NCBI GenBank assembly: GCA_028286685.1
Contig: JAQBRA010000005.1
Span: 80,726-144,725, forward strand
Direction: 5' to 3'
Source: Candidatus Adlerbacteria bacterium
Lineage (GTDB): Bacteria > Patescibacteriota > Minisyncoccia > Phycocordibacterales > SBAW01
DNA length: 64,000 nt
The notes under the pieces are model-generated. The model saw only the letters and a list, made by a program, of their open reading frames with translations, was not told the origin of the DNA and made no database searches. Position numbers and translations under genes: made by a program. The stretch's first letter is position 1, and each line of letters begins with the position of its first letter. This document shows, piece after piece, positions 735-20,530 of this stretch.

Positions 735-869
735 ATGTCGCAAACATACCAGCCAAAAAAGCGCAAAAGGGCCCGTGCACACGGGTTCCTCAAGCGTAAT
801 GCTACTCCGGCAGGCCGCCAGATCCTTAAGCGCCGCGCCCGCCGCGGTCGTGCCCGCTTGTCGGTCTAA
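735..869 (+). CDS. rpmH: 50S ribosomal protein L34
   Basis: Internal ATG of ORF 666-869 gives MSQTYQPKKRKRARAHGFLKRNATPAGRQILKRRARRGRARLSV, the canonical 44-aa L34. Confidence 0.9.
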   Translation: MSQTYQPKKRKRARAHGFLKRNATPAGRQILKRRARRGRARLSV

Positions 870-872
870 TCC

Positions 873-1166
873 ATGCTGCCCAAGCTCTCTCGGCTTACTG
901 CCCTTGAGGTGCGCCAGGTCATAAAAGAGGGGCGCTCAGCCAGGGTTGAGGGCCTTTCTATAAAACATATAGCCGCCCCAGTTCCCAAGGCGGCCGTAGT
1001 GGTAAGCAAGAAGGTTGCTCCGGGGGCTGTCGAGCGCAATCGGCTGCGCCGCCTCATTTACAGCAGCCTCCCCTCCCCCCTCCCGAGCGCCCATATGGTA
1101 TTCTTTGTCCAATCGCCCGCAGTTGAGCCAGAGCAGGTTGCCAAACTATGTTCACAACTTTCCTAG
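873..1166 (+). CDS. rnpA: RNase P protein component
   Basis: 97-aa basic protein immediately after rpmH with the ...VVVSKKVAPGAVERNRLRRLI... motif. Conserved synteny. Confidence 0.8.
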   Translation: MLPKLSRLTALEVRQVIKEGRSARVEGLSIKHIAAPVPKAAVVVSKKVAPGAVERNRLRRLIYSSLPSPLPSAHMVFFVQSPAVEPEQVAKLCSQLS

Positions 1167-1855
1167 TACAGCCTATCTACAACCTGTTCGTCTTCCTCTT
1201 GGGCCTTATGCCTCAGGGCGATGCTGGCTTGGCCATTGTGGCTCTCACTCTCTTTATGCGCGCAGTGCTCTACCCGATCTTTACTGCCTCCATCCGCACC
1301 CAGATGGGCATGCAGGCCATGCAGCCGGAGCTCGATGCGGCTCTCGAGAAATATAAGGACGACAAGGAGGCGCTGACCCGCGAGCGCATGGCGCTCCTCA
1401 AGAAGCACAAGGTTAACCCGTTTGCGGGCTTCGGCGCGCTTATCGTGCAGCTGGTGGTGCTTGTGGCGCTTTACTTTGCGCTCTTCCGCGAGGGATTCCC
1501 GGCAATACACACTGAGCTTCTCTACAGCTTCGTAAGCGTCCCGGCGCAGGTGTCGACGGCCTTCTTTGGGCTTATGGACCTCTTGGCGCCCAAAAACATC
1601 GTGCTGGCGCTTTTGGTGGGTGCGACCCAGTACCTTGCTATACGCCTCACGCTGCGCCGTACCCCTGCCCCGACGCATCCGGACAAGGAAGCGGCTCATC
1701 GGCTGCAGTCGCAGATGATGCTCTACTTCATGCCGGCGCTTATGGCCGGAGTCTCATACTTTTTCCCGGCTGCGGTCGGCATCTACTTTGTTACCGGCAA
1801 CCTCGTATCCCTTTTCCAGGAGTGGATGCTGATGCGCGGCAAAAAGCAGAACTAA
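1148..1855 (+). CDS. yidC: Membrane protein insertase YidC/Oxa1, short form
   Basis: 235 aa with 5 hydrophobic helices. It overlaps the rnpA end and sits in the position of yidC in the rpmH-rnpA-yidC-jag block. Confidence 0.8.
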   Translation: MFTTFLVQPIYNLFVFLLGLMPQGDAGLAIVALTLFMRAVLYPIFTASIRTQMGMQAMQPELDAALEKYKDDKEALTRERMALLKKHKVNPFAGFGALIVQLVVLVALYFALFREGFPAIHTELLYSFVSVPAQVSTAFFGLMDLLAPKNIVLALLVGATQYLAIRLTLRRTPAPTHPDKEAAHRLQSQMMLYFMPALMAGVSYFFPAAVGIYFVTGNLVSLFQEWMLMRGKKQN

Positions 1856-1889
1856 AAAACAGGAGCGTCCACTGTCTCCTGCAGCCGTT

Positions 1890-2372
1890 GTGGTTTATAG
1901 TGGGCTTATGGAGTCCTCCTTGCTTAAAGACTTTGTAGCGGAGCTTTTGGATAAGCTAGGGCTTGAGCCTTCCTCGGTTTCGGTTACCTCCGGCCACCGC
2001 ACCGTTGTCGCGGTCGAGCTAGAAGACCCCGCTCCCCTCTTGGGCCAAGAAGGCGAAGCTTTGCGCGCGCTCAACTCAATCGCCAAGCGCATGATTGAAA
2101 AAAGCCACGGCGAGGAGGGCGCAGCTTTCCTTATAGACGTAAACGGGCACCACGAGTCGCAAATGGACCGCGTGCGCGATGCTGCGCGCGTCCTGGCGCA
2201 ACGCACGCGCCTCTTTAGGCAGGACGTCGAAATGCCTCCCCTCTCCGCCTACGAGCGCCTGGTAGTGCACGAGCTGTTTGCTGAAGATCCGGATATAACA
2301 ACCGAGTCTGCGGGCGAGGGCAAGCTGCGCCACATCGTCCTTAAGCATAAAAGCCCGGGCAAAAAATCCTAA
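1890..2372 (+). CDS. jag: Jag/KhpB-like RNA-binding protein (KH plus R3H)
   Basis: 160 aa with an ...LLGQEGEALRALNSIAKRM... KH-like segment and a C-terminal R3H-like ...YERLVVHELF... segment. Synteny supports it. The listed start is GTG; an ATG at 1908 is an alternative. Confidence 0.65.
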   Translation: MVYSGLMESSLLKDFVAELLDKLGLEPSSVSVTSGHRTVVAVELEDPAPLLGQEGEALRALNSIAKRMIEKSHGEEGAAFLIDVNGHHESQMDRVRDAARVLAQRTRLFRQDVEMPPLSAYERLVVHELFAEDPDITTESAGEGKLRHIVLKHKSPGKKS

Positions 2373-2381
2373 CCCCTGCTC

Positions 2382-3668
2382 CTAGTAGAGCCGCACTCCC
2401 CAAAGGCTCCGCTCTCCCTTTTTTATAAACAGAAGATATTTGTCGTCTTGCGAGATTGTAAGGTTCGTAATATCCGAAGCCTCTCCCCCCTCAGCGCCCC
2501 CTGGGTTTGCAAGTATGGCGGTCAGTCCGGTCGCTAGGTTAAAGACCACAATCGAGTCTATGCTCGAGCCGGTACCTTGGTGCAAGAGATCTATGTAGTT
2601 GGTCGGCAAGTACGAAAGTGATACCGCGCAATACATGACGCTCACCTGGGTCCGGCTCCAGGCGCATTTTTCCGGAATAGGGTCAAAGGATAGCGGCCGG
2701 TCGAGATTTGTTTTGGTGTCGTGCGTATAGGTTGTGCGCGCATTTTCCGTAGCGCTCTGGTATACAACCTGGCTAAAAAAGCTGTCGGCAGTGGTGGTAA
2801 GTCCTGGTGCGTACAGGATTGGCGCGGTGGCACCGGTCGTGGCATTAACGGAAAATGCTATGCCCGCGAGTCCCGTAGCTGCTTTAGAAGTAACCATAAG
2901 GGTGGACTGGGTCGGCCACGACAGCAGTACCTGGGAGAGCGGGAGAGAAAAGAGTCGTGTGGTATTAGTACCGTCTGCTCGTGCAACATAGCCGTCGACA
3001 CCGCCTGGGGCTGCCAGCAAATAAGCCAGGGAGCGTCCGTCTGGAGATGCGACAATATCGATTATGTCGTTAGGCAGGAATTGTATCCGTACCGGAGCGG
3101 GCGTGCTGGATGTGGTGCTTGCCAAGGGGAAGTTCAAGAGCACGGTCTTAATCGTAGATCCTTCGATGTACTGCATGGTGGCGCCGGCTGCGCGGGTGCG
3201 CCCGGCGTCCTGCTGCAGCTCCCACGCTACTCGCGCTACGCCCGGTATGGTCGTGTTGGAGGAGGCGCGCGCGACCGAGCCCGGGCTATCGATGGCCAAG
3301 TCGAGCACATGGCCGTTTTCCTGCTTTACGAAGCGCGCGATAGTTGTCGTGGGTCGCAGCTCCTGCATAAAGGTGGCGCCGGCAATCGGTCCGTCGCTTA
3401 TCTTAAATACTTTCTGCTGCGACACGGGCGAGGGTATCGCCTCGTTGGCGTTAGTTGATCCCACAACACTATTGGCACCCACCGAAGTCTGTGAGTTAAA
3501 CGAGCCCGTCTGCTGCGGAGTCTCCGTTGGGGTGAGTTCCGGCGTGGAGCGGAAAAAGAAGAACCACGCTACGAGCATGACAAAAAGTATTCCTCCGATA
3601 ATTTCTACTACCAGTTTCCAATTAAAATTAGACTTCATTTCCGTTTGCGCATAAGCATTGCCAGTCAT
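2382..3668 (-). CDS. Membrane-anchored PD40/TolB-like beta-propeller repeat protein (last gene of the T4SS-like operon)
   Basis: N-terminal TM helix, a Ser/Thr-rich linker, then repeats such as SPDGRSLAYLLAAPGGVDGYVARADGTNTTRLF typical of PD40 blades. Confidence 0.5.
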   Translation of the reverse strand: MTGNAYAQTEMKSNFNWKLVVEIIGGILFVMLVAWFFFFRSTPELTPTETPQQTGSFNSQTSVGANSVVGSTNANEAIPSPVSQQKVFKISDGPIAGATFMQELRPTTTIARFVKQENGHVLDLAIDSPGSVARASSNTTIPGVARVAWELQQDAGRTRAAGATMQYIEGSTIKTVLLNFPLASTTSSTPAPVRIQFLPNDIIDIVASPDGRSLAYLLAAPGGVDGYVARADGTNTTRLFSLPLSQVLLSWPTQSTLMVTSKAATGLAGIAFSVNATTGATAPILYAPGLTTTADSFFSQVVYQSATENARTTYTHDTKTNLDRPLSFDPIPEKCAWSRTQVSVMYCAVSLSYLPTNYIDLLHQGTGSSIDSIVVFNLATGLTAILANPGGAEGGEASDITNLTISQDDKYLLFIKKGERSLWGVRLY

Positions 3669-4512
3669 TGCTGGTTGGATAATGTACGGTGCAGATTTGG
3701 GTGCCGCTGCTCTGATTCTGGCAATCGTTAACCTTTTTATTGTTTATTGCCTCTGCAGTTTGCTGGGGGGTGATTTGTTGTATCGCGTTCTGCCCGGAAG
3801 TGATCGAGCTTAAGTTGAGCTTGAAGGTAACCAATTCAGGATTGATAGTATTGAGTATAAGGTACGAAGACATAAGGAGAACGATGGCCCACATGGCGCC
3901 GCGGATGCGTCCCAATGCCTTAGTCTTGTTGCCCACCACATCAGAAAACATGTAGGTAAGCGCGCCTAAGACGAGCATAACGACTGCAAGTGTGGCCCCT
4001 GCCCCCAAGAGGAGCTGGAACGAGCTTGTTATCAGGCTTTGGAAGGAACCCTGCCCCTGATTGGGGCCGTAGATATTAGGGAGTCCTGGCAAGGGCTCGA
4101 GCGGGATATAGGTGCATTTTCCGCCCTGACAAAAAGCATTGGGATTTATTGGTTGCGTTTGTGTTTGAGTGGTGGGAGTGGTTGCACTTGGGTTTTTTAT
4201 GTCCGTAAGCGAACCGGTGTAGCCAGTTTCTTTGGCACACTGGGAAAAATGTGTTTGTTCCGAGATAAGCAACCCCCCGGTCTTCATGCACTCAGTAACT
4301 TTTTGAGCTGTCGATGCTGAGTTGCTGGGCGTTGGGACGCATCCCCCTTTTTCCCAAAACCAAAATCCTCCAGTACTCGAGTAGGTCTGTCCATCGGCAC
4401 ACGTATAGTCGGTGGCTGCAGGGGTTGGGCTAATGAATGTTGGATTAAACTGAGCCTGGGCAATATGGCCCGCAGGCAAAAGAAGCAAGGCGAGTATTAA
4501 AAATTTTTTCAT
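3628..4512 (-). CDS. Secreted VirB2/TrbC-like two-helix hairpin protein with Cys-rich ectodomains (candidate pilin-like subunit)
   Basis: Signal peptide MKKFLILALLLLPAGHIAQA. A Cys-containing N-domain is followed by two hydrophobic helices (LLLGAGATLAVVMLVLGALTYMF and AMWAIVLLMSSYLILNTI) separated by a short basic loop, as in VirB2/TrbC. A Cys-rich C-terminal tail follows. Confidence 0.35.
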   Translation of the reverse strand: MKKFLILALLLLPAGHIAQAQFNPTFISPTPAATDYTCADGQTYSSTGGFWFWEKGGCVPTPSNSASTAQKVTECMKTGGLLISEQTHFSQCAKETGYTGSLTDIKNPSATTPTTQTQTQPINPNAFCQGGKCTYIPLEPLPGLPNIYGPNQGQGSFQSLITSSFQLLLGAGATLAVVMLVLGALTYMFSDVVGNKTKALGRIRGAMWAIVLLMSSYLILNTINPELVTFKLNLSSITSGQNAIQQITPQQTAEAINNKKVNDCQNQSSGTQICTVHYPTSNDWQCLCANGNEV

Positions 4513-5531
4513 ATACCGAAGAAGGATGCGGTTGCCGAGCCGGGCTGACCGAAAAGTATGCCCAGTACGGTTTGTGCTGCTTGTACCAGCTGGTTTTGGT
4601 TGTTGTTTTGGAGAGATACTTCAAGTGCGGCTGAGCCCGTGCCCGTGCCCGTCTGGCGCAAGGTAAGTATGCCGTGGCTTGAGTCCGGGCCCGCAATTCC
4701 CTCGCCGCTAAGCGTCCACTCATATTGTACTGCCCCGCCGATAACCGATACGCGGGAAAAGTTGTAGGGCTGCGCCGCTATGGTGATTTCCTTAGTACTC
4801 AGCGACAGGGAGCTCGGCAGCGCCAAGTCGTACAAGACGCCCCGCAAGGAGTCTCGCTCGTACAGCACTACTTGCGGTTGGCTCACGGGTATAACTACTC
4901 CCCCGCGGCCCACCAGACTCGTGCCAAAGTAGACATCAACGGCAATAGTTTCCTGCGCCTGCAGCTGATCCCCGTCAAAAGAAAGGGTGTTGCGGCCGAG
5001 TCCGGACTGTGCGGGCAGCGGCTCGTCGTTGCGGGTCCATTGGTACGAAAGGCTCGAAGCGGCAACCTGTGCGTTGTTTATTATGACCATGGGGAATGCC
5101 GCCACTTTAAGCGGAGAACCTGCCGAGTAGAGGGGTTTCCCTCGGTAGAGAGGCGGTGCCCAAGTATCTGCCTCCCATACCAAATTGACCAATGAAGGAC
5201 GAAAAACAAAATCCTTGCCGTATGTGCCTTCAGTCGGAGACTGTATGTCAACGCGTACCTTGGTTATACTGCCCACTGCGCCCGTTATAAAAGAGTACGT
5301 GCGAAGTCCTGCGCCCGACTGTACTACTTGGCCGTCCTTCTTCCAGATAATGGTAGCGTTGCCTAAAAAAGTGCCCAGGCCTTGGGCCTCTATGGTTACC
5401 TGCTGGTTTGGTCCTGGCACATCTGGGGTAATAACGTATTGCACCGGGTCGGGTGCGACCTGGGCATGGGCCCAAGGAGTCGCGAGTAGGAAGCCAGAGG
5501 CTATGGATAGTTTAAGCAGCTTTTTGTACAT
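4509..5531 (-). CDS. Secreted beta-rich repeat protein, hypothetical (operon member)
   Basis: An internal ATG at 5531 gives MYKKLLKLSIASGFLLATPWAHAQ, a signal peptide. It is 340 aa with repeated Gly/Thr-rich beta-like segments and a hydrophobic C-terminus. It overlaps the downstream gene by 4 nt. Confidence 0.5.
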   Translation of the reverse strand: MYKKLLKLSIASGFLLATPWAHAQVAPDPVQYVITPDVPGPNQQVTIEAQGLGTFLGNATIIWKKDGQVVQSGAGLRTYSFITGAVGSITKVRVDIQSPTEGTYGKDFVFRPSLVNLVWEADTWAPPLYRGKPLYSAGSPLKVAAFPMVIINNAQVAASSLSYQWTRNDEPLPAQSGLGRNTLSFDGDQLQAQETIAVDVYFGTSLVGRGGVVIPVSQPQVVLYERDSLRGVLYDLALPSSLSLSTKEITIAAQPYNFSRVSVIGGAVQYEWTLSGEGIAGPDSSHGILTLRQTGTGTGSAALEVSLQNNNQNQLVQAAQTVLGILFGQPGSATASFFGI

Positions 5532-6195
5532 AAGATGGTCTCTCGGGAGCCCGGTTGTCGTTCGCCGCCGCGCGTATGCCGTCAAAATTTCTAGTCTGGA
5601 GCGGAATGTGGACGGGGTTTGACGGAGTTGCACTTGCAGTGTGAGTCGCCATATACACAATGGGTTTTACTGCGGCAAGGGCTGTTCCGACTCCTGGTAT
5701 TATAGATGCGACATTGAGTGCCGTCATAAGTTTGGAACGTCCTGTTCCGCCGGATGCTTGCGTTTGGTTGTACGTCTTTATACAACGGTGTACTAATATG
5801 CTCCATCCGGGTACAAAGGCGTTAACCCCCGGCAACATCTCACTACTAAAACCCATCACCACAGCCATAAGAGAAAACCGCCCGGACACCCACAGCATAA
5901 GAATAAGCAGGACGCCAAAGGTACAGCTTATGGCAATGTCTATCGCCATGCCTGCAGGAATGGCGATAGCACTGAGTCCTGCGCCAACGATCCCGCCACC
6001 CACTGCGCACTTAAAGCCTTCCAGCAGTCCGGAAATGACGCCGCTTGTGGCGTTGTAGCAGAAATAGGCTCCGGTCGCTGCGCCCGTCAGGCCGCCTCCC
6101 ATTGGCGTCATAAACTGGAACGCCAGTAGGGTTATAAAGAATATGAACTGCAGAAGATCGATAACTCCGGCGAATAGGCGCAACGCGAGATTCAT
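5512..6195 (-). CDS. Polytopic Gly-rich integral membrane protein, hypothetical (operon member)
   Basis: 227 aa with at least 5 hydrophobic helices rich in small residues. It lies 6 nt downstream of the VirB4 ORF. Confidence 0.5.
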   Translation of the reverse strand: MNLALRLFAGVIDLLQFIFFITLLAFQFMTPMGGGLTGAATGAYFCYNATSGVISGLLEGFKCAVGGGIVGAGLSAIAIPAGMAIDIAISCTFGVLLILMLWVSGRFSLMAVVMGFSSEMLPGVNAFVPGWSILVHRCIKTYNQTQASGGTGRSKLMTALNVASIIPGVGTALAAVKPIVYMATHTASATPSNPVHIPLQTRNFDGIRAAANDNRAPERPSYVQKAA

Positions 6196-6201
6196 GTACC
6201 C

Positions 6202-8016
6202 CTATTGTACAGCGGCTTCCGCCTTTTGCTTGCGCAATGCTAACACCTGGGAGGGGTCCGAGGTAATGATCTGGTCCTCGGTATATGAAGCGATAACTTT
6301 TATAGCCACGTGCTTGAGTCCCGCGAAGAAGATCCCCTCTCCCACGTCCGATTCCAACAGGAGGTATTTCTCTTCCTCCGATAGGTTAAAGGTCTTTTGC
6401 AGGCTGTCGATAGTGGTTGGCGACTGCTTGAGCAGTATCTGGATCGAGGAGTTGGAGATCATGGGGAGTCCGTACGGCGACTTCAGGAAGTCATCCACGT
6501 CCTGGGTAATGGTAGCTAAGCCTAGGTAGTACTTGCGGCCGCGCTTGGCCATGCCGTAGAGGAACGATGCTGTGTCTTCCGACTTCATCATCCACCAGGC
6601 CTCGTCGATTACCAAAAGGCGCTTCTTGAGGTTCTTGCGGACCGTGTTCCAGATGTAGTGGGTAATGAGGTACATTGCCACGGGCTTGAGGTCGTCCTCC
6701 ATGTCGCGGACGGAAAAGACCACGAACTTCTTGTTCATGTCGACGTTGGTCGGCTGGTTGATGAAGCCGGACCAGGTCCCCTTGGTGTACTTGGAGAGGC
6801 GCTGCACCAGAGACTCCGAGCCCTGCATGCCCGAGAGTACCAGCTCGAAGTCCGACAGCAGGGGTGGTTCGATCTCGGCAAAGTTGGAATCTATAGTTAT
6901 GTCCTTGAGGGCGTACGTCTCTGAAATGGCCTTGTCGATGATGGCGTCTTCTTCCGGAGAGAGGCCGCCGAGCATGATGCGGAACATACCCACCAGCGCC
7001 ACGATGTTGGAGCGCAGGATGTCGGCTGCCGCTTCGTCCTCGCGGGGCGGGGCCAGGTCAAACGGGTTTATGTGGTGCTCGGAATTGAGCGAGATGTTGA
7101 AGTAGCGCCCCCCTACCGCTTGGGCCAGGAACTCGTACTCGCGCTCGGGGTCGATCACTATTACTTCCGTATCGAACATGAGCGTGCGCAATATCTCAAG
7201 CTTGGTCATGTAGGACTTGCCGGAGCCCGACTTGGCAAAAATTACCGAGTTGTAGTTCTCAAGCGAGAAGCGGTCGAAGAGCACCAGGGAGGCATTGTGT
7301 CGGTTAACCCCGTAGAGGATGCCCTTGTCGGACGTAAGGTCAAAGGATATGAACGGGAATATGGAGGACAGCGGCGAGGAGTTGAGCTTGGAATTAACGT
7401 TGAGCTCATCGTGGCCTAAGGGCAGCACCGATTTGAAGCCCTGTTCCTGCTGGAAGAGAGCCGGCTTTACGTATACCAGGCGGCTCTCGAGCATGGATTT
7501 GATCTCGCTTTCGGCCTTGTCGAGTTCTTCGACTGTTGTGCCGTAGATAGTAATGTAAACGCCGACATCGAACAGTTTTTCCTGAGCCTGCTGCAGCTGG
7601 TCGCGCAGGGACTCGAGGTCTTGGTAGGCGGTGTCGAGTATCGGGTCGCGCACCAGCCCCTTCTCCTCGCGGGCCATGATCTGGCTCTGCACCTCGGCCA
7701 CTTTCTTCTGGAACTTCTTGAGTATGTCGGCGGAGTCTATCGGGTGGATGAATACCGATATGTCGAGCACGCGGTCGAGGTTGATGATGGGCGCAAACCA
7801 CGAGTCGGTAAGGACGCGCGGGTAGGACATTACAAAGAAAGTACGCGCAATCTTGTCGCCGAGGTTTATCTCGCGCGGCGTAATCTTGAGCGCCGAGGGA
7901 GCGATGACGTCCTGGAGCTCGAGCACGCCCTGTTTATAAATCTGCTCGGGCATGATCGGCGCTACTGGGGCGCTTTGCGGAGACTCTTTAGATTTGAATA
8001 GGTCAAGGAATGCCAT
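6202..8016 (-). CDS. virB4: VirB4/TraE/CagE-family conjugal-transfer ATPase (ATPase body)
   Basis: Walker A FAKSGSGKSY, Walker B RLLVIDEAWWMM, and the ...FFVMSYPRVLTDSWFAPIINLD... region typical of VirB4. 604 aa. Confidence 0.85.
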   Translation of the reverse strand: MAFLDLFKSKESPQSAPVAPIMPEQIYKQGVLELQDVIAPSALKITPREINLGDKIARTFFVMSYPRVLTDSWFAPIINLDRVLDISVFIHPIDSADILKKFQKKVAEVQSQIMAREEKGLVRDPILDTAYQDLESLRDQLQQAQEKLFDVGVYITIYGTTVEELDKAESEIKSMLESRLVYVKPALFQQEQGFKSVLPLGHDELNVNSKLNSSPLSSIFPFISFDLTSDKGILYGVNRHNASLVLFDRFSLENYNSVIFAKSGSGKSYMTKLEILRTLMFDTEVIVIDPEREYEFLAQAVGGRYFNISLNSEHHINPFDLAPPREDEAAADILRSNIVALVGMFRIMLGGLSPEEDAIIDKAISETYALKDITIDSNFAEIEPPLLSDFELVLSGMQGSESLVQRLSKYTKGTWSGFINQPTNVDMNKKFVVFSVRDMEDDLKPVAMYLITHYIWNTVRKNLKKRLLVIDEAWWMMKSEDTASFLYGMAKRGRKYYLGLATITQDVDDFLKSPYGLPMISNSSIQILLKQSPTTIDSLQKTFNLSEEEKYLLLESDVGEGIFFAGLKHVAIKVIASYTEDQIITSDPSQVLALRKQKAEAAVQ

Positions 8017-8025
8017 ATAGATAGA

Positions 8026-8676
8026 TTACTGCTGCATTTGGGTTACCTGGAGCGGCTTCTCCAGCTCGCCCGGGTTGAAGAGCTTGTAGAAGAGTTCTAT
8101 GACCTCCTCGGTGCCCAGCTGCACGATGCGGACCCCGGTGCGCACCAAGCCTTGTTCGATGACCGATACCCGCTGCTCGAGCTGGGTACGGTACTGCTGG
8201 AACTGCTCGTCGGTGAGGGTGGCAGATGCCGAGGTGCCGCCCGAGAGCATAGAGCTGAAGCCGCCGCGCGAGGCCAAAGCCGGGTCGTACGGCACAACGA
8301 TAAAGAAGTTCTTGGACATTATGTTAGCCCGTTCAGTAAAGTCCTTAATAAAGGCTATGTACTCGCGTATCTGGATGCGCATCAGGTCATCAAGCTCCTT
8401 CTGGTAGCGGTCTTCCAAAAGAGCAATGTAGGGGCGGATATCAAGGGCGCGGCTCTGGACGAAAAATTGCGCCGTAAACTCCAGCGAGTTGAGGAAGTTC
8501 TGAAACTGTCCGATGACGGCCTGCTGCTCGTCTTGGGACTTGAGCGCCAGGTTGATAGAGGAAGCCATAAGGAGCGCGCGCAGGCTGCCGTCTTTTAGTA
8601 TCACAATGCCGTTGCGCACCTCCTTTATGGGGACGAAGTCCTGCGTGGCTTTGGCTTGGGCGGCGTTAGTTGCCAT
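8026..8676 (-). CDS. VirB4 N-terminal segment, in the same frame as ORF 6202-8016 and separated from it by one TAA plus 9 nt
   Basis: 216 aa with ...VPIKEVRNGIVILKDGSLRALL..., resembling the N-terminal motif of VirB4-type ATPases. 216 + 604 aa adds up to the usual VirB4 length. Frames are identical: the stop sits at 8028-8026 and the next ATG at 8016-8014. Confidence 0.6.
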   Translation of the reverse strand: MATNAAQAKATQDFVPIKEVRNGIVILKDGSLRALLMASSINLALKSQDEQQAVIGQFQNFLNSLEFTAQFFVQSRALDIRPYIALLEDRYQKELDDLMRIQIREYIAFIKDFTERANIMSKNFFIVVPYDPALASRGGFSSMLSGGTSASATLTDEQFQQYRTQLEQRVSVIEQGLVRTGVRIVQLGTEEVIELFYKLFNPGELEKPLQVTQMQQ

Positions 8677-8696
8677 AAGTATGGTGGTTCATAAGG

Positions 8697-9143
8697 CTAT
8701 ATTTGGAATCCGCTGCGCGGCGCCGCATCTCCTGCCTGATTGTGGTCTTTTATATTGAGCGACCAGGAGAGGTCCTTGAGCCTGCTTTGAGAGAGTCTGG
8801 GCACTATGAGCGTTGAAGGATCTGCAGCTTTTACTGCTGTGGCTTCCGGTGCAGAAGTCGAGTCGCGCTGCTTCCACAAGTAAAGCTTGTGTCCCAGGGC
8901 GTAGCTGAAGGCGTGCTCAGCGGCCGATATAAGCGGCCTACCGTTGACCTTGTAAAAGGCAAACGCGGTTCCGATGCCTACAGAAAGGCCTACCAAGGGC
9001 AGGGCAAGTATGAGCGGCAGGAGCGTAAAGAAGATGAGCGAGAGCCCTGCTCCGCCGGCCAGGTAGATAAACTGCCGCAGTGTCAGCGGACCAAATATCT
9101 TGTCTTCAACCTCGATAAACTGGGGTACTTGGTACTGAGCCAT
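8697..9143 (-). CDS. PrgI/VirB3-like small two-TM protein
   Basis: MAQYQVPQFIEVEDKIFGPLTLRQFIYLAGGAGLSLIFFTLLPLILALPLVGLSVGIG... This looks like the N-terminal motif and double-TM layout of PrgI-family (VirB3-like) proteins from Gram-positive-type T4SS. Confidence 0.5.
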   Translation of the reverse strand: MAQYQVPQFIEVEDKIFGPLTLRQFIYLAGGAGLSLIFFTLLPLILALPLVGLSVGIGTAFAFYKVNGRPLISAAEHAFSYALGHKLYLWKQRDSTSAPEATAVKAADPSTLIVPRLSQSRLKDLSWSLNIKDHNQAGDAAPRSGFQI

Positions 9144-9168
9144 CCCCTATAGTATATATCCACTTTGG

Positions 9169-9858
9169 TTACTCCACAGGTTCGCGATACGGGTCAGCTT
9201 TGTAATTCTGGGGCAAAGTAGGGTCCGTAGCGGGTGAAGCGGCTGGCGCCACAGCCGGAGAGGGAGACGAGGGCGCAATAGGAGTGCTTACCTTTTTCTC
9301 CGAGAGCATTACCTCGGCGGCCATAAGATCAGGCACTACCGCAGGCTTGGGGCCTACGCTGATAGGGGTTAGTAAGGGCGCAACTGCGACAACTTCCACA
9401 GGAGCTTCGGGGGCTGCCGGTTCCAAGACCGGCTTTGCGGCTGAAGGCATCACGACCTGGGGAGTAGAGGCGGGCTCAGGTTGAGGCACAGATACTGCTG
9501 CCGGCGCGGACGCGGGCAATTCCTCCCCTCCCCTTTTTTTCTCGGCCCACGCCTTCATAGATTCGCGTATCGGCATGAAGATGTCATCTGCAACATCTGA
9601 TGCTATTGCGTCCGCCTGAGCCGGCGTTACAAGCAAAGTGGCTACAAGTTGGTCCACGAACTCCTTTGGCTCTGCAAATCCGAGCATGATTAGTATCGTT
9701 TCGTCCTCCAGGTCCCCTATCTGGTCTATATGAAGTCCCTGCTTCTGGCCGATGGCTTGCACTTTTTTACTCAGATCAACCGACTGAATGGCGTCGCGCA
9801 CGTCTTGAGGGAGTTCGGCAAGTCTCTTTTGTACCTGTGCTTCTAAGTTCTGTTCCAT
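9169..9858 (-). CDS. Hypothetical protein with Pro/Ala-rich C-terminal half (operon member)
   Basis: 229 aa with an acidic helical N-half and a C-half of PAxxP repeats. It is tightly packed in the operon. Confidence 0.45.
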   Translation of the reverse strand: MEQNLEAQVQKRLAELPQDVRDAIQSVDLSKKVQAIGQKQGLHIDQIGDLEDETILIMLGFAEPKEFVDQLVATLLVTPAQADAIASDVADDIFMPIRESMKAWAEKKRGGEELPASAPAAVSVPQPEPASTPQVVMPSAAKPVLEPAAPEAPVEVVAVAPLLTPISVGPKPAVVPDLMAAEVMLSEKKVSTPIAPSSPSPAVAPAASPATDPTLPQNYKADPYREPVE

Positions 9859-9880
9859 AATAATATTATATTAGAACCTG

Positions 9881-12253
9881 TTATTTATTTTCTGCTGGCT
9901 TTCCGTTTCTTGTTTTCTTGATTACGTCCCGTATGGGATTTTTTTTATCTCTGAAGTTAGTTAAGTTTTTGTTTAGCTGTGCGATAGGTTTAAGACTCTC
10001 CTCAAGTTTGGCAGGCATTTCCCCCATAGTTTCTATCAGCTTTCCTACTTGTTCCGCAAGATTTTTCGTTTGTGAATCATGCGGAGTGGATTGAGATGGC
10101 TGAGTTTTCGGCTGATCTTTGGTTTTATCAGTAGGGATAGTAGTAGAGGCTGATGATGCGGGATTTTGCGCCTGTGAGGGATTAGGGATAGTGGTCAGCG
10201 GAGCAGGATGAGAAGAAGTTTCGCCTGAGCCGCCAAGGTTTTTAATAAGATTAAGGATACGCGTTTTGTCGTCCTTAGAGTCGCGCATTTTCGCGGCAGC
10301 CTCCTTATCTCCTCTAGAAATTAAGCCTGGTATGCCTGAACTTCCGATTCCGCCCATATTCTGCCAGCTTAGTTTGTCCATCTTGCCGATAAATTCCTTT
10401 GAGTAGTCTCCTCCCGCCAACTTCTTGGCTTTCTTTATGACCTCTGTCCTATTTATGATCTCACTATAAGCTTTTTTCTTTGCCTTAACTTCCTCTGTAG
10501 TTGCTTCTCCGTTCTTATGGTCTTCCTGTGCATCGGCATATTCTTTTGCCGCTTTTGCTAAGGCATCTTTATCTCCTGAAGACAATCCTCCAAGAGCGTT
10601 CTTGTACGCCTGATCGAGTTCGTAGTCGGACGGTTTTAGGGCTCTTGCCTGCTTCTCGCGCAAGGCAGTCCTTGTTGCGACCGCTCCGGCGTAGCCATCT
10701 TTGCCTCCTGCTTCGGCAGTGTCTATGCCCAACTTCCCAAGCCCGGTACGCACGCCCGGAGCGGCGCGCATGTCAAATGAGCTTTTTCCGATGCCTGTTA
10801 AGGCGCTCTGGAGTAGCCTGCCGGGAGCATACTGAGCGCCTGCGCGTATGGCAGAGCTTTGAGAAAGTGCGTAACCTCCGGCACCAAAGGTGTTGCGAGC
10901 TAAGGCACCAGCACTGCCGAAGGCTGCGCTGGTGCCTGCACGGCCCGCCCATCCGGTAACGGTGTGCGCAACGCCCGCGCCCTGCACGCCGATATATTCA
11001 GATGCCTTGAGCGCGATATAAAGCATAGCCACCACAAAACCGAGCCGGATGCCTACGTTGGCAACCTGGCTAGCTATAAAGGTAAAGCCGTTCAGGTTAT
11101 TAGCTGAGTTGTTAAGGTCGGTCGCCAGGCCGGCCAATATGCCGTTTTTTGTTCCTAACCCAGTCATGACCGTGTTTATAAACAGGAATATAAAGAGGAA
11201 TGCCGCCGGATAAAAGGTATGAGATATAAGCTCGTGCTGCCACCGGTCATACCAGCTGGACACCGAGTCTTTAGGCACTGCCTTGGCGATAAACGCCAGA
11301 GGCGCCGCGATAATAAGGAACCAGAGCACCACTATGCGCACCAAAAACTTGATCCCGACCGCCAAGAACATGGCCGCAAGGATAAAATAGCAGGCACCGA
11401 CCATTATGTAGAGGAAGGACAGGATGATGAATTTCGTGCCAAACCCGCTTGCTTTGGCAAACTGCTGGAAGTTCTTGTCGGCAAAAAGCTCCTCTATACT
11501 AAGCGTCTTCATGATGCCTGCAGTAAGGTCTTTGGTGTGCTCAAAGACGCCATTAGGGCTGAGTTTGCTTGCGATGCCGGCTGCAGCGTTAGCGAGCGTT
11601 CCTGTGTTTGCGCTGGTTTCGCTAACAGTCGACAACATAGTGGGCGCATCTATGGCGTTATAAAACTGCACGGCTAAGATATTGCCTGCGTCGATGACCA
11701 CGCGGGTCAAAAAGAAGCTAAAGTTGATAATGAGCGCGATAAATATCACTCCCGCCAAGAGCCGTATGGTGCCCGGGGTCTCCGCCTGAAACATGATCAT
11801 AAAGGCGATGTAAACCAAGATGAGGATAAAGCCCATGTTGGCCAGGTCGCGTGCGGTGCCCCAGCCTGATGAGAGGAAGTCGAGCGCATAAGCCGAGCTA
11901 TTAAGCGAGAGCGATACTGTCATGTCAAATATAAACCCGCCGACGTAGGCTAGTCCGCTGCCAAGGCCTACCGTAAAGACATAGACAATGTTGGCCAGAC
12001 AGTTGGACATGTCTGAAATTTCGCACTTAAGTCCGTCGCCGGTGTCTTGGCCGGCCGGTGTCTTGCTGGTAGGCGGGGTACCGCTTGCGGTGCCGATTTG
12101 TTGAGCGTGCGCAGACGGAATTGTCAGGACCTGGAAAAAGGGAGAAAAGGTTATCGTCGCTAGTACCAATGCAAAACCCGTCTTGCTGGCGTACTGGAGA
12201 AGTTTTTTTGTAAGATTGGTAGGCACGTAAGTTAGGCGCCAAGGGCGCGGCAC
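9881..12253 (-). CDS. VirB6/TrbL-like polytopic membrane protein with long hydrophilic C-terminal extension
   Basis: 790 aa with a signal-like N-terminus and at least 8 hydrophobic helices over the first 450 aa. The tail is rich in Gly/Ala/Lys and ends in a Ser/Thr/Pro/Gln-rich region. Its size and topology resemble PrgH/TcpH/VirB6. The listed start is GTG. Confidence 0.5.
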   Translation of the reverse strand: MPRPWRLTYVPTNLTKKLLQYASKTGFALVLATITFSPFFQVLTIPSAHAQQIGTASGTPPTSKTPAGQDTGDGLKCEISDMSNCLANIVYVFTVGLGSGLAYVGGFIFDMTVSLSLNSSAYALDFLSSGWGTARDLANMGFILILVYIAFMIMFQAETPGTIRLLAGVIFIALIINFSFFLTRVVIDAGNILAVQFYNAIDAPTMLSTVSETSANTGTLANAAAGIASKLSPNGVFEHTKDLTAGIMKTLSIEELFADKNFQQFAKASGFGTKFIILSFLYIMVGACYFILAAMFLAVGIKFLVRIVVLWFLIIAAPLAFIAKAVPKDSVSSWYDRWQHELISHTFYPAAFLFIFLFINTVMTGLGTKNGILAGLATDLNNSANNLNGFTFIASQVANVGIRLGFVVAMLYIALKASEYIGVQGAGVAHTVTGWAGRAGTSAAFGSAGALARNTFGAGGYALSQSSAIRAGAQYAPGRLLQSALTGIGKSSFDMRAAPGVRTGLGKLGIDTAEAGGKDGYAGAVATRTALREKQARALKPSDYELDQAYKNALGGLSSGDKDALAKAAKEYADAQEDHKNGEATTEEVKAKKKAYSEIINRTEVIKKAKKLAGGDYSKEFIGKMDKLSWQNMGGIGSSGIPGLISRGDKEAAAKMRDSKDDKTRILNLIKNLGGSGETSSHPAPLTTIPNPSQAQNPASSASTTIPTDKTKDQPKTQPSQSTPHDSQTKNLAEQVGKLIETMGEMPAKLEESLKPIAQLNKNLTNFRDKKNPIRDVIKKTRNGKPAENK

Positions 12254-14145
12254 TCTGCAAGCGAAGCGTTGGTTTGTTGGTTGCGGGCGGCAAGTTCTGT
12301 CTGGAGTGTGGTGCGATTCTGCTGCGCAGTGGTTATGTCTGCCTGGGTTAGGAAAGATCCCTGGGCTGCGGCAGACGAAATGGCGGAAGCGGCGGCCGAA
12401 ACCTCCTCGGGCGTTGTTGCAAACATAACCTGCGATTGCATATTTTGTATAAGGCCCAGAGAGGCATTTGATCGGGTTATTTCATCGTTGTAGGCAGTAA
12501 TGCGGACCTCGAGTGCGGTCTGGGCCGAGTCCAGGCTCGCTGCCTTGTCGGCGGCGCTCGCCTGCTGCGATGAGTTGAGCGCGGTTGATGAGGCGGCGGT
12601 GCTCCAGCAGTTAAAGGCCATATTAAGCCCCGACTGCGCACCTTGGATATCGGCAATGCTCCCCTGCTCTACGTTGGCATACTGTCCCGCATAGCCCAGA
12701 TAGCCTTGGAGCTCGCTCAAAAGCCCCTGTGCCTGCGCGCTTGCTGCCTGGTCTATGGCGGGAGTAAGTGGGTTGGTAACGCCAAGCGAATTGCCGAGCC
12801 CGCCGTACAGCGTCTTTATCATCACTTGGTTGGTAAGCGCCCTGATAATGTCATTTATGTTCTGCGACAGGTTAAGTCCCTGTATAGGCGAGGCGAGACT
12901 GGTGTTAAGTGATTGCTGTATGACTTCGCCCGGGGTGGTTACCTTGCAATTACCCTTCGCCACGCTCTCTCCCTTGCTTGCGTCGCACTTCTGGAGCGAT
13001 ATGAACCCGCCCGGAGAGACATTGCGGTTGGCATTGGCCTGCGCATTATTTACGTAGTTACTAAGCTGTCCGTTTATGGAAGAATAAGCGCCAAACTGGT
13101 TATTTGCCGGCGAGGTGGTCATCTGAAGCATCCTACCCCATCCATTTATGTTATTAGTAACTTTACTAAGGGTGCAAGCGGCCCCATTGGCATTATTTCG
13201 GTTAGCGTAGCTCTGCGCCACGGCGATCTTTATCTGCGGCGCAAACGGCGAGCAGAGGAAGGAAAGTGCGGAGCTTTTGAGAAACTCCCCTGCCGCCTGG
13301 TCGGCAACGTTCGCAAAGTACTGGTTAAAGTTGGTAACAAAAGACGGCTTTCCGTTGAAGCCCGAGTTTATCCAGGTAACGATGCTCCGGGTTATCTGGT
13401 CTATGGCAGCCTGCGCAATAGTCTTAACAAGGCACTCTTCGACGCTCTTAAACTTAGTGTTATTGAGCTTTGCGCTCGAATTAAAGTCGAATACGACCAC
13501 GTAGGGTCCGGCTCCAGCCAAGGATTTGGGGCCGTCCGTGGTTGCCTGCAAGTTTCCCGATATCTCGTATGCCAAGTACTGCGCAAGGCACCCGGCTGCT
13601 GCAAGCCCTAGCACAAGCCCTGAGGTACCCAAGCCTGCCGCCTGTGGCGTAGTTGATATAAGAGGAGTGCCGCTAATGCCAGCGGTAGAGTTTATCTGGT
13701 TTATTTCCGCGGCAGTAAAGGCGCGCTCGGTTACGGTCGTGTTGATACCTCCTCCTACCCATGCGGCGCTTTGATTGCCGCCTTGAGAGGAGTTTGCAGA
13801 GCCTGTCTGCGAGTCCGAGTTTGATCCCGAACTTCCCTGCGACCCGGTGTCTATCCCGCTACCGGTTATGTCGATACCATCCAAGCCTCCGGTGTCGGTG
13901 CCTGGGATAGTGGAGGGTGTGTTGCTCGGGTCTCCTGATCCAAGCGAGCCGCTCGGGCCGCGGTCACTCGAGGTGCCAAAGCCGCTTGGGTTTTGGGTGG
14001 TAACAGCCGGTTCCCGGTTAAGGAGCCAGAACCACAATATGCCGAGCAGCGCCAAGAAGAGCAGTGCCCCTCCGATGATGAATATGATCTTCCTGGTCAT
14101 GACAATAGCAGGGCGCCTTAGGATGCGGATAGGAACGTGTCCCAT
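12232..14145 (-). CDS. Membrane-anchored large extracellular protein, Ser/Gly/Thr/Asn/Gln-rich (operon member)
   Basis: 637 aa with an N-terminal TM helix (KIIFIIGGALLFLALLGILWFWLL), a low-complexity S/G/T linker, then a large domain with scattered Cys. No catalytic motif was recognised. An alternative start lies at 14100. Confidence 0.5.
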   Translation of the reverse strand: MGHVPIRILRRPAIVMTRKIIFIIGGALLFLALLGILWFWLLNREPAVTTQNPSGFGTSSDRGPSGSLGSGDPSNTPSTIPGTDTGGLDGIDITGSGIDTGSQGSSGSNSDSQTGSANSSQGGNQSAAWVGGGINTTVTERAFTAAEINQINSTAGISGTPLISTTPQAAGLGTSGLVLGLAAAGCLAQYLAYEISGNLQATTDGPKSLAGAGPYVVVFDFNSSAKLNNTKFKSVEECLVKTIAQAAIDQITRSIVTWINSGFNGKPSFVTNFNQYFANVADQAAGEFLKSSALSFLCSPFAPQIKIAVAQSYANRNNANGAACTLSKVTNNINGWGRMLQMTTSPANNQFGAYSSINGQLSNYVNNAQANANRNVSPGGFISLQKCDASKGESVAKGNCKVTTPGEVIQQSLNTSLASPIQGLNLSQNINDIIRALTNQVMIKTLYGGLGNSLGVTNPLTPAIDQAASAQAQGLLSELQGYLGYAGQYANVEQGSIADIQGAQSGLNMAFNCWSTAASSTALNSSQQASAADKAASLDSAQTALEVRITAYNDEITRSNASLGLIQNMQSQVMFATTPEEVSAAASAISSAAAQGSFLTQADITTAQQNRTTLQTELAARNQQTNASLAECRALGA

Positions 14146-14990
14146 GCCGCGCCCGGTTCGTCCTTAGTAAAAAGTATACCGCCCTTCTTAAGAGCCTCGG
14201 CTATGTTTGTTAATATACGCCCTGCTTCGCCCATAAGCGCCTGGTATTTTTGCAGCGCGGCGACTCCCCGCAGCGGATCGTCTATCGCTTTGCTCATATC
14301 CGGATACGCGGCGGCAATTCCGTAAATGTTCTGCACCACCTGAGAATGGAGGGGCGAGAGCGTTCTAGGTACTTCCAAGGCAGCTAACTCGTCGGCAATG
14401 GCTTTATACTCGCGTCCGATAGGCGCCAGCGCCGCCAATTGGGCAGTATCAGCAGCGCCAGCCATTGCTACGTAAGTTGCTTCGGAGCTAGCTTTTGGAT
14501 GTCCGGCAAAAACTTGCATAACGGCGTTGCCGTAGGCACGCAGCGTAAGATCGGATGATTCGACGAGGGTGAGAGTGGGAGCTTTCGGTGCAATTTGTGA
14601 AGCGTTAATGCGCCCAATTGCCTCGGCGACGATGCTATCTTGGGTCGGAATATCGTCACCGAGGCCTTGTACTCCGGCGTTCGTCAGCCGTACCAGGAGA
14701 CTGCGCCCTATAGAGTCGGTCAAATTGTCGCTTTGAGCGTCTGCAATCAAGGTTTCTATTGTGCCTTGGCTGGGCGTGTCGGGGAGCGATATGCCGCTTT
14801 CTGCCTGTATTTGGGCCAATGCCCGCTCCCATTCGTCGTCCTGGAAGGCATTTTCTGCACTGGCAAGCACTGCCGGTGCGTTTTTTGAGGAGGCGTAGTA
14901 TTGCGCGGCGGCTACCGCTCCCCCGGATATGGCGAGGGCGCCCACAACGACCATGAATTGAGCAGAAGGAAGATACGTACGGACACTCAT
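14118..14990 (-). CDS. N-terminally anchored periplasmic/extracellular protein (first gene of operon; VirB8-like role possible)
   Basis: 290 aa with a TM helix at residues 10-30 followed by an Ala-rich soluble domain. AAGGA sits 4 nt before the ATG at 14990. Confidence 0.4.
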   Translation of the reverse strand: MSVRTYLPSAQFMVVVGALAISGGAVAAAQYYASSKNAPAVLASAENAFQDDEWERALAQIQAESGISLPDTPSQGTIETLIADAQSDNLTDSIGRSLLVRLTNAGVQGLGDDIPTQDSIVAEAIGRINASQIAPKAPTLTLVESSDLTLRAYGNAVMQVFAGHPKASSEATYVAMAGAADTAQLAALAPIGREYKAIADELAALEVPRTLSPLHSQVVQNIYGIAAAYPDMSKAIDDPLRGVAALQKYQALMGEAGRILTNIAEALKKGGILFTKDEPGAAWDTFLSAS

Positions 14991-15014
14991 TTGTCCTTAG
15001 TATATAATGAAAAG

Positions 15015-15389
15015 ATGCATAACCTTCTCCGTGTTCTAGTAGTCTTCAGTATTATCGGTGCTTTTACGGTTCCTTTTTCTGCTTCTGCAATCGCTTTTCT
15101 TCCTTTTGGAGGCCGGGTCGTTACTCCTATTCCCTGCGTGTCAGGAGAAGGACCGTCTTGGTTTATCACTATAGTTCCCTTCGGTCTGCCGGGCACTATT
15201 CCGGTAACATTTATTTGGACTCCTCTTACCCTAACCAGTACGATCCCCCCTATTCCGTCAAAGCCGCCCTATCGCCCTGGGCAGCAATTACTGGGCACGT
15301 ATATTCCAGGAGGATTTCAAATCTGTATGGTAGGCAAGGTGCCCCTGACTGGCTTGAGGATGTTTACGGTAAATACGGAACTCTTTTAA
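15015..15389 (+). CDS. Small secreted Pro/Thr-rich protein, hypothetical
   Basis: An internal ATG at 15015 gives MHNLLRVLVVFSIIGAFTVPFSASA, a signal peptide. 124 aa. It is convergent with rsmA, with a 4-nt overlap. Confidence 0.4.
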   Translation: MHNLLRVLVVFSIIGAFTVPFSASAIAFLPFGGRVVTPIPCVSGEGPSWFITIVPFGLPGTIPVTFIWTPLTLTSTIPPIPSKPPYRPGQQLLGTYIPGGFQICMVGKVPLTGLRMFTVNTELF

Positions 15390-16135
15390 CTAGCCGCCAG
15401 CGCGAGCCAAGCTTCAAGCAGCACATCCTCGGCGCGCGCCTTGGCGGGTATGCCGGCTTCTTCTAGGTGTTGCATATAGCCAGCGCCCAGCAGTTCTTTT
15501 AGGTTGCTCGCGAGCAGTTTTCTTTTCTGCCCGAAGCCTGTGCGCAGGAGTTCAAAAAACCGCTCCTCGTCCTTTTCGCTTTTAAAATTGCTACGGGAAA
15601 TGCCTGAAATAAGCAGGATAGCCGAGTCGACTTTGGGCGGCGGCACGAACGCGCCCGCCGGCACGGTCTTTATATAGGAAGGGGTGCCGTACGCTTTTAT
15701 TGAAAGAGAGAGAATGCTTTCTTTTTTGCTGCGCGCGATGCGCTCGGCGACTTCCTTCTGTATTAAGAAAACTAAAGATGATGGCTGGTTAATGCCCGAT
15801 AGAAACTTTTTAAACAGCGCGCCGGTAATGTAGTACGGGATGTTGCCGACTACTTTGTAGTTCTTAAACGCGGGCTCGTACTCCAGGGCGTCGCCTTCTA
15901 TAACCTCGAACTTTTCTCTGGAGAATTTTTCTTCCAGTAAATTTATGAGCCGGGAATCTTTTTCAAGCGCGACTACTTTTGCTCCGCGCTCAAGCAGTAC
16001 TTGGGTCAGTGCGCCTTCGCCGGGACCAATCTCGAGCACCATGTCCCCTTTTACAAGATTGGCCGCATCAGCCACCAAGTTAAGGTAGTGCTTATTGTGC
16101 AAAAAATGCTGGCCGAGTGATTTTTTCTTCTCCAT
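15386..16135 (-). CDS. rsmA: 16S rRNA (adenine1518/1519-N6)-dimethyltransferase
   Basis: SLGQHFL, VLEIGPGEGALT and VVGNIPYYIT motifs. Confidence 0.85.
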   Translation of the reverse strand: MEKKKSLGQHFLHNKHYLNLVADAANLVKGDMVLEIGPGEGALTQVLLERGAKVVALEKDSRLINLLEEKFSREKFEVIEGDALEYEPAFKNYKVVGNIPYYITGALFKKFLSGINQPSSLVFLIQKEVAERIARSKKESILSLSIKAYGTPSYIKTVPAGAFVPPPKVDSAILLISGISRSNFKSEKDEERFFELLRTGFGQKRKLLASNLKELLGAGYMQHLEEAGIPAKARAEDVLLEAWLALAAS

Positions 16136-20385: not shown

Positions 20386-20530
20386 GCTGGCTATACTAGC
20401 AGAAATAAATATTCCTGCATGCGCGATGCGCGCTTTGGCCGCGGCTTTTGGCATCCGTGGCTGTTGCACAGCTTTGTGAAACCTGGGGTGGGCGCTTTGG
20501 GCAGACCCAACTTGTGTAACACAAGTTGGC

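Follow-up and report, generated by a model that had tools for sequence, protein, structure and literature searches.

Patescibacteria T4SSs and the Adlerbacteria locus

Patescibacteria, or Candidate Phyla Radiation (CPR) bacteria, account for much of bacterial diversity and apparently live on other cells, and a type IV secretion system (T4SS) is among the few candidate machines for that dependence. Wang et al. (2023) described in Southlakia epibionticum a Gram-positive-like T4SS with pilins and without a relaxase or coupling protein, and transposon sequencing found it to be essential for epibiotic growth (PMC10633639). In a survey of 3,035 Patescibacteria genomes by Quinonero-Coronel et al. (2025), VirB4 was present in 2,417, mostly as one clade nested in the MPF_FATA class; TrsD, PrgI/VirB3, VirB6 and PF18895/VirB2 pilins were encoded near virB4, VirB8 rarely so, and relaxases lay near virB4 in only 15 genomes (PMC12102498). 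The virB4 genes of Paceibacteria were close to dnaA, dnaN, rnpA, ksgA and rpmH (PMC12102498), and Patescibacteria T4SSs were included in a 2025 review of T4SSs (PMC12857230). Here we analyzed a 64,000-nt stretch of a Candidatus Adlerbacteria genome (contig JAQBRA010000005.1), referred to as the window, in which eleven minus-strand open reading frames (ORFs) running from 14990 to 2382 encode a T4SS locus beside dnaA.

The operon was found to be a typical Paceibacteria member of the published Patescibacteria T4SS, a system already known from descriptions of 2023-2025. It encodes a CD1110-type VirB4, TrsD and PrgI/VirB3 beside virB4, and a PF18895 pilin, and it is a relaxase-free locus near dnaA, rnpA, rpmH and ksgA, agreeing with the published system in each of the defining features that were compared. 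By its sequence this VirB4 appears to belong to the Patescibacteria-specific clade nested in MPF_FATA. Overall, the locus is very probably a Patescibacteria T4SS that arose from monoderm MPF_FATA conjugation machinery, lost the DNA-processing module and serves transfer upon host contact. The published Patescibacteria T4SS clade, which includes the Southlakia locus (SEML1_0006-0019), has the same VirB4 type, TrsD, PrgI/VirB3, a pilin, no relaxase nearby and a chromosomal location by dnaA/rnpA/rpmH/ksgA, and its VirB6 may have a counterpart in the weakly VirB6-like 790-aa protein (PMC12102498, PMC10633639). The window locus differs from its described relatives in three respects. It has a single pilin with large extra domains, whereas Saccharimonadia and Microgenomatia carry arrays of 2-11 pilins. 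Unlike the Saccharibacteria locus, it has no lysozyme/peptidase genes inside the operon. Finally, it has lineage-specific accessory genes that the survey left unassigned, namely those for a protein with three immunoglobulin (Ig)-like domains, a putative TolB-like propeller, two anchored ectoproteins and a DPYRE-motif protein. The window is a clean Paceibacteria example with testable leads and no new kind of system; what it adds to the literature are gene-fusion links, the Ig-like fold of the protein encoded after VirB4, variable adhesion modules, the DPYRE motif and the contrast in rate shown by VirB4.

Core components of the secretion apparatus

Domains were assigned to the ORFs by hidden Markov model (HMM) searches with Pfam and NCBIfam, and relatives were compared in 80 loci from GTDB species genomes, which were searched with all window proteins and chosen by VirB4 similarity. 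VirB4 matched NF045971 (CD1110 family) with an E-value of 6.4e-118 and 395 bits against a cut-off of 325, and it also matched PF19044, PF12846 and DUF87; the Walker A (AKSGSGKS) and Walker B (VIDEAW) motifs were legible in the sequence. The TrsD-like ORF matched NF041427 (TrsD/TraD) at 4.9e-10 and aligned to the N-terminal positions of VirB4 models (2-116 of CD1110 and 100-233 of VirB4_plasma). This ORF was separate in 77 related loci, where it measured 209-272 aa, indicating that the split from VirB4 is conserved and that the gene is not a pseudogene. The PrgI/VirB3-like protein matched PF12666 (2.9e-10; 41 bits against a cut-off of 27) and had orthologues of 42-64% identity in 77 of the 80 loci; it and the TrsD-like ORF adjoined virB4 in 77-78 of 80. 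In the 294-aa protein PF18895 (T4SS_pilin) matched aa 154-223 with an E-value of 3.4e-6 and a marginal score (27.5 bits against a cut-off of 26.6), and the hairpin core aligned well across 42 orthologous ORFs. A custom HMM search of the window for more pilin genes returned none besides 3628-4512.

A preliminary description of the window, made from the sequence and without database searches, had named a VirB4-family ATPase with a separate N-terminal segment, a PrgI/VirB3-like protein and a VirB2-like hairpin in a Cys-rich protein of 294 aa. The HMM matches to VirB4, TrsD, PrgI and the PF18895 pilin bore these assignments out, in the last case marginally. It had also called the 790-aa protein VirB6-like; the polytopic topology was recovered, but the protein had no Pfam TrbL/VirB6 match of its own at E ≤0.1. 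The TrbL/VirB6 family PF04610 did match 3 of 29 orthologues (best E 1.6e-4), a profile search of the 790-aa family against PDB sequences gave no VirB6 match, and the position upstream of VirB3/VirB4 was kept in 60 of 80 loci. Topology, position and weak homology thus point weakly to this protein as a candidate extended VirB6.

Table 1. Features of the window, with the eleven operon products in operon order followed by other genes; positions are those of the window.
Feature	Position	Strand	Characteristics and basis
First operon gene, 290 aa	14118..14990	-	N-terminal transmembrane (TM) anchor aa 9-31, probably helical ectodomain; hydropathy, no known family
Anchored ectoprotein, 637 aa	12232..14145	-	TM aa 12-44, S/G/T/N-rich linker, conserved Cys-containing core (WINxGFxGxPxFVTN...LCSPF...), C-terminal long-helix bundle
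Polytopic membrane protein, 790 aa	9881..12253	-	~6 or more TM segments, long hydrophilic coiled-coil-like K/E- and S/T/P-rich tail; hydropathy
Soluble protein, 229 aa	9169..9858	-	Conserved N-terminal ~100-aa domain, variable Pro/Ala-rich linker, C-terminal DPYRE motif; unknown family
PrgI/VirB3-like small membrane protein, 148 aa	8697..9143	-	Hydrophobic hairpin aa 24-64; PF12666
TrsD-like protein, 216 aa	8026..8676	-	VirB4 N-terminal domain as its own ORF; NF041427
VirB4 ATPase, 604 aa	6202..8016	-	Monoderm CD1110/MPF_FATA type, Walker A and B intact
Gly-rich polytopic membrane protein, 227 aa	5512..6195	-	Sequence poorly conserved; hydropathy
Secreted protein, 340 aa	4509..5531	-	Three tandem Ig-like beta-sandwich domains; AlphaFold2 and Foldseek
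Pilin-hairpin protein, 294 aa	3628..4512	-	Signal peptide, ~130-aa Cys-rich N-terminal region, VirB2-like two-helix hairpin aa ~154-223, Cys-containing C-terminal tail
Last operon gene, 428 aa	2382..3668	-	N-terminal TM anchor, probable TolB-like beta-propeller ectodomain, two invariant Cys; profile search
dnaA 5' part, first 186 codons	1..559	-	Runs off the window; DnaA N-terminus and Walker A GPTGLGKTH in translation
rpmH-rnpA-yidC-jag/khpB	735..2372	+	Convergent with operon end
uvrD/pcrA-ksgA	15386..18033	-	Upstream of operon on the same strand, small divergent ORF 15012-15389 between
LysM-LysM-M23 peptidoglycan hydrolase	18242..19372	+	PF01551, PF01476; 3.2 kb upstream of operon
PilB/GspE-type ATPase	46142-47692	+	T2SSE and MshEN; alone beside tpiA and pgk
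ComEC, membrane core	55638-56999		Competence/DUF4131; split ComEC, separate gene
ComEC, metallo-beta-lactamase domain	57990-58862		Split ComEC, separate gene

Conservation and organization of the operon

The order uvrD-ksgA-290-637-790-229-PrgI-TrsD-VirB4-(227)-340-pilin-428, in which numbers stand for the proteins of that length, followed by the convergent jag-yidC-rnpA-rpmH and then dnaA, was conserved in up to 80 loci. It recurred in Adler-, Nomura-, Kaiser-, Campbell-, Taylor- and Zambryskibacteria and in unclassified Paceibacteria, and dnaA was adjacent in 53 of 80 loci, that is, in nearly every locus whose flank reached that far. As shared housekeeping genes flank this order, recent insertion of a mobile element is ruled out. 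In the window itself, the N-terminus of DnaA together with DnaA boxes at 589-597 and 629-637 confirmed the placement beside dnaA that had been read from the sequence. The GC content of the operon (0.51-0.56) was the same as that of its flanks.

VirB4 was 76-93% identical across related loci, and one with 100% identity is listed for a Candidatus Adlerbacteria metagenome-assembled genome (MAG). The best 120 homologues listed were all at least 90% identical, and all of those with a source name came from Parcubacteria/Paceibacterota, which supplied more than 100 of the listed clusters, or an unclassified patescibacterial MAG. We compared rates in the 70 loci whose VirB4 was <85% identical; the VirB4-based choice of loci biases the absolute values, while the contrast within genomes stands. 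The median identity was 78% for VirB4, 61% for TrsD, 50% for UvrD, 48% for PrgI, 47% for KsgA and 35% for YidC, and it was 29% and 26% for the 340- and 428-aa proteins; the N-terminal part of DnaA was about 50% identical, a value read from the match list and not a computed median. Judged from these identities, VirB4 is under strong purifying selection and more constrained than the neighbouring housekeeping genes, and the predicted extracellular parts evolve fast. The contrast in rates marks VirB4, TrsD and PrgI as the likely constrained core.

All eleven ORFs were present, tightly packed, at the coordinates given in the preliminary description, which had put their gaps and overlaps at 10 nt or less. 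This did not hold: with the listed start codons the gaps were 6-25 nt and the overlaps 4-41 nt. The spacing is still operon-like. A promoter scan found 7 promoter-like sites against 8.1 expected by chance, and a terminator scan found 25 terminator-like sites against 15.1 expected, none of them at the operon boundary. Divergently from the first operon gene runs a small plus-strand ORF (15012-15389), which from its ATG at 15012 would encode ~125 aa with an N-terminus resembling a signal peptide; the start codons of the two are ~21 bp apart, leaving almost no room for an operon promoter. Homologues of this ORF were found at the same position in 5 related loci (L006, L007, L008, L030 and L070).

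Accessory and predicted extracellular proteins

The 637-aa S/G/T/N-rich ectoprotein and the 290-aa protein had both been taken for membrane-anchored proteins, in agreement with the hydropathy of their N-terminal TM segments. The 290-aa protein had no Pfam, NCBIfam or PDB match; its orthologues were found at the same position in 23 of 80 loci, and bacterial TSP3 calcium-binding repeats in 9 of 24 orthologues point to an extracellular location. An AlphaFold2 (AF2) model of the 637-aa protein, built from 47 sequences, had a mean predicted local distance difference test (pLDDT) score of 64 and was confident only for the C-terminal helix bundle of ~175 aa. Foldseek comparison of this model with the PDB gave generic helical matches only, none at E ≤0.001, and for the conserved Cys core AF2 gave no confident model and no fold was assigned. 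Homologues of the 637-aa protein were all "hypothetical" and without Pfam domains. Among its orthologues the C-terminus was replaced by an F5/8-type-C discoidin domain (6 of 29) or by Ig-like domains. One orthologue (alignment A3) matched Pfam DUF4141, a domain of TraI proteins from Bacteroidetes conjugative transposons, with an E-value of 1.3e-5.

The 229-aa protein has no TM segment, and D222, P223, Y224 and E226 were invariant in the alignment of its orthologues (alignment A8), which occupied the same position in 49 of 80 loci. It had no Pfam or PDB match, and profile searches of PDB sequences with the 637-, 290-, 790- and 229-aa families gave nothing meaningful. The invariant DPYRE end after a Pro-rich linker suggests a docking peptide for another subunit.

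The AF2 model of the 340-aa protein was all-beta and confident (pLDDT 89.4, predicted template modelling score 0.77). Foldseek placed phage Hoc, with its Ig domains, first (3e-10) and adhesion molecules of Ig type next, and the sequence profile of the protein likewise matched Hoc. A VirB8/TcpC identity was ruled out for the 340-aa protein, as its model consists of three Ig-like sandwiches and not of an NTF2 fold. Orthologues of the 340-aa protein directly followed VirB4 in 76 of 80 loci; the product would measure 383 aa if an upstream TTG start were taken. A polytopic ORF with 2-5 TM segments stood at the position of the 227-aa protein in about two thirds of the loci. In P0243, P0312, P0327, P0338 and L004 a 227-like polytopic domain was fused N-terminally to the Ig-like protein, and in P0294 and P0337 the Ig-like protein was joined to the PF18895 pilin. 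These fusions argue that the three adjacent products work together. In the window the 227- and 340-aa genes overlap by 20 nt (5512-5531) in different frames, and they form a single ORF in P0243, P0312, P0327 and P0338. In the fused ORFs the "signal peptide" of the Ig protein is an internal TM helix, a gene fission/fusion polymorphism.

The last operon product had been described as a PD40 beta-propeller. A profile of 29 orthologues matched TolB propellers of several species, weakly (best E 1.5e-4 over ~120 residues), and there was no Pfam match, PD40 included. Orthologues were found in 63 of 80 loci.

Comparison with other T4SS classes

The Gram-positive MPF_FATA systems (pGO1/pSK41 trs, pCF10 prg, pCW3 tcp and CTn2 CD1110) have the same CD1110-family VirB4 and PrgI-type VirB3 as the window locus, and a separate TrsD N-terminal-domain protein is common to the latter and staphylococcal pGO1. 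The outer-membrane core proteins VirB7, VirB9 and VirB10 are absent from both. In contrast to conjugative MPF_FATA systems, the window locus has no relaxase, type IV coupling protein (T4CP), VirB1-type SLT/CHAP hydrolase or recognisable VirB8-like (PrgL/TcpC) subunit, and no mobile-element context was found, the chromosomal neighbours being identical across lineages. It also has a VirB2-like pilin, which Gram-positive systems lack, and it is chromosomally fixed beside the origin. The nearest VirB4s outside the CPR came from monoderm plasmids of Firmicutes/Actinobacteria and were only 28-36% identical. When window ORFs of about 150 aa or more were scanned with Pfam, no relaxase, VirD4/TcpA-type protein or VirB11-type ATPase was identified, as had been noted before for the 64 kb. 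The Bordetella Ptl and Brucella VirB systems are like the window locus in having a VirB2 pilin and no coupling protein or relaxase. These, however, belong to the diderm MPF_T class and possess VirB8, VirB11 and a VirB7/9/10 core, and they have no sequence relationship to the window locus beyond VirB4 and VirB3.

Proposed function and alternative explanations

Homology identifies a predicted monoderm VirB4/TrsD ATPase, its PrgI/VirB3 partner and a VirB2-like pilin. We propose that VirB4 would dock on PrgI/VirB3 and on the large VirB6-like polytopic protein to make a membrane translocon, and that it would power extraction and assembly of the pilin. As the gene fusions of relatives suggest, the partners of the pilin may be the small polytopic protein and the one with three Ig domains. 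The three membrane-anchored ectoproteins, propeller included, are probably the wall-spanning, host-contacting part, and interchangeable modules (discoidin, Ig-like and TSP3) are found in their orthologues. Such a machine would most likely serve transfer upon contact with a host cell rather than conjugation, and its cargo could be proteins or another substrate, in either direction. By analogy with Southlakia the T4SS function is probably essential, and the purifying selection on VirB4 is consistent with essentiality for epibiotic growth. The preliminary description had proposed a fixed, non-conjugative T4SS-like surface machine; the synteny, the lack of a relaxase, T4CP or mobile context, the purifying selection on VirB4 and the publications all support this.

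A more specific and rather doubtful proposal is that the Paceibacteria accessory set is an uncharacterised extracellular module, a conduit or decorated pilus that imports host lipids, nucleotides or proteins by means of a Gram-positive conjugation core. Its members could be the two ectoproteins with swappable lectin/Ig/TSP3 domains, the three-Ig protein, the TolB-like propeller and the cytoplasmic DPYRE-motif protein. If true, these organisms would depend on an import-directed T4SS, which would account for the higher conservation of VirB4 relative to DnaA, UvrD, KsgA and YidC.

Several points weigh against the reading as a host-contact T4SS. No VirB8-like (PrgL/TcpC) subunit was recognised in the operon, either by profile searches or in the structure models of the 340- and 637-aa proteins, and no VirB1-like hydrolase was identified inside it. 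The VirB6 assignment of the 790-aa protein is weak, and the PF18895 score of the 294-aa protein barely exceeds the threshold; with its large extra domains, this protein may or may not form true filaments. Four to five of the 11 products are without an assignable fold or role. Co-transcription is inferred from the spacing alone, the promoter and terminator scans being uninformative. The absence of a T4CP covers the 64 kb of the window, and one may be encoded elsewhere in the genome; VirD4-like genes occur in most Patescibacteria genomes, far from virB4 (PMC12102498). The demonstration of essentiality comes from Saccharibacteria alone, with a locus that differs in its pilin arrays and lysozyme/peptidase genes, and in Paceibacteria the system is known from gene sequences.

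An organelle for adhesion only, in which VirB4 would build a filament or adhesin complex on the cell surface to attach to a host, without any translocation, is unlikely in our view. It would account for the pilin, the three-Ig protein, the anchored ectoproteins (whose orthologues have discoidin, Ig-like and TSP3 modules) and the lack of a coupling protein in the window. Against it, the VirB6-like and VirB3 translocon parts are kept and conserved, and type IV pili are reported already to give adhesion in Saccharibacteria (PMC12206443). The present data cannot separate this organelle from a host-contact T4SS.

We consider it quite improbable that the locus is a DNA-uptake (competence) machine like Helicobacter ComB or archaeal Ced that feeds ComEC, even though ComEC and a PilB-like ATPase are encoded within the window and CPR bacteria, which are unable to make nucleotides, are naturally competent (PMC10633639; PMC12857230). 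The VirB4 matches to the Ced proteins were weak, at 37 bits for CedB and 18 bits for CedD against cut-offs of 700 and 600, respectively, and comEC, at a distance of 40 kb, shows no synteny with the operon. Southlakia lost competence yet stayed viable when comEC was deleted, whereas its T4SS genes were essential (PMC12857230), and the role of the T4SS therefore cannot be only ComEC-dependent DNA uptake.

There is next to no likelihood that the operon is an ordinary integrative and conjugative element or the remnant of an integrated plasmid with relaxase, T4CP and integrase outside the operon; VirB4, TrsD and PrgI are of the kind found in Gram-positive conjugation and a tyrosine recombinase is encoded in the window, but this explanation was rejected on synteny, the order being identical between the same housekeeping genes in several Paceibacteria lineages, and it is further opposed by the equal GC of operon and flanks, the missing relaxase and T4CP, the distance of the recombinase (13 kb off, behind housekeeping genes), the conservation of VirB4 above UvrD, KsgA and YidC, which is the opposite of a decaying element, and the scarcity of relaxases near virB4 in the published survey (PMC12102498).

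Genomic neighbourhood of the operon

The lack of a lytic transglycosylase had been reported for the window. No match exceeded the threshold, yet a LysM-M23 hydrolase is encoded nearby and one ORF had a sub-threshold match. The hydrolase was found at the same relative position in 6 loci, and VirB1-like proteins with M23/LysM domains occur near virB4 in Paceibacteria (PMC12102498). It could possibly supply a wall-opening role of VirB1 type. The other ORF (19540-20679, minus strand) encodes a 379-aa membrane protein whose aa 283-338 matched DUF1402 at 25.2 bits against a threshold of 27. It had no match among PDB sequences; a lysozyme-like hydrolase acting on the wall, encoded close to the T4SS operon, is one possible identity.

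The split comEC and the orphan PilB-like ATPase of the preliminary description were both found again. A superoxide dismutase gene lies on the opposite strand between the two comEC parts, and no other pilus genes were seen near the PilB-like ATPase within the window. Among the 64 called ORFs of the window TGA served as stop codon in 3, TAA in 41 and TAG in 20, while the TGA trinucleotide was as frequent in the DNA as TAA. Recoding of TGA was rejected as the cause, since the ORFs are intact under table 11, and the rarity of TGA stops looks like a stop-codon bias. Behind the tyrosine recombinase gene (28362-29291) the GC content drops to ~0.46-0.48 (at 30-33 kb; ~0.55 elsewhere) in a stretch that holds Exo_endo_phos and DUF3800 genes, and four tRNA genes (34697-37181) come next. 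The region 28362-37200 could represent a small integrated island that has nothing to do with the T4SS.

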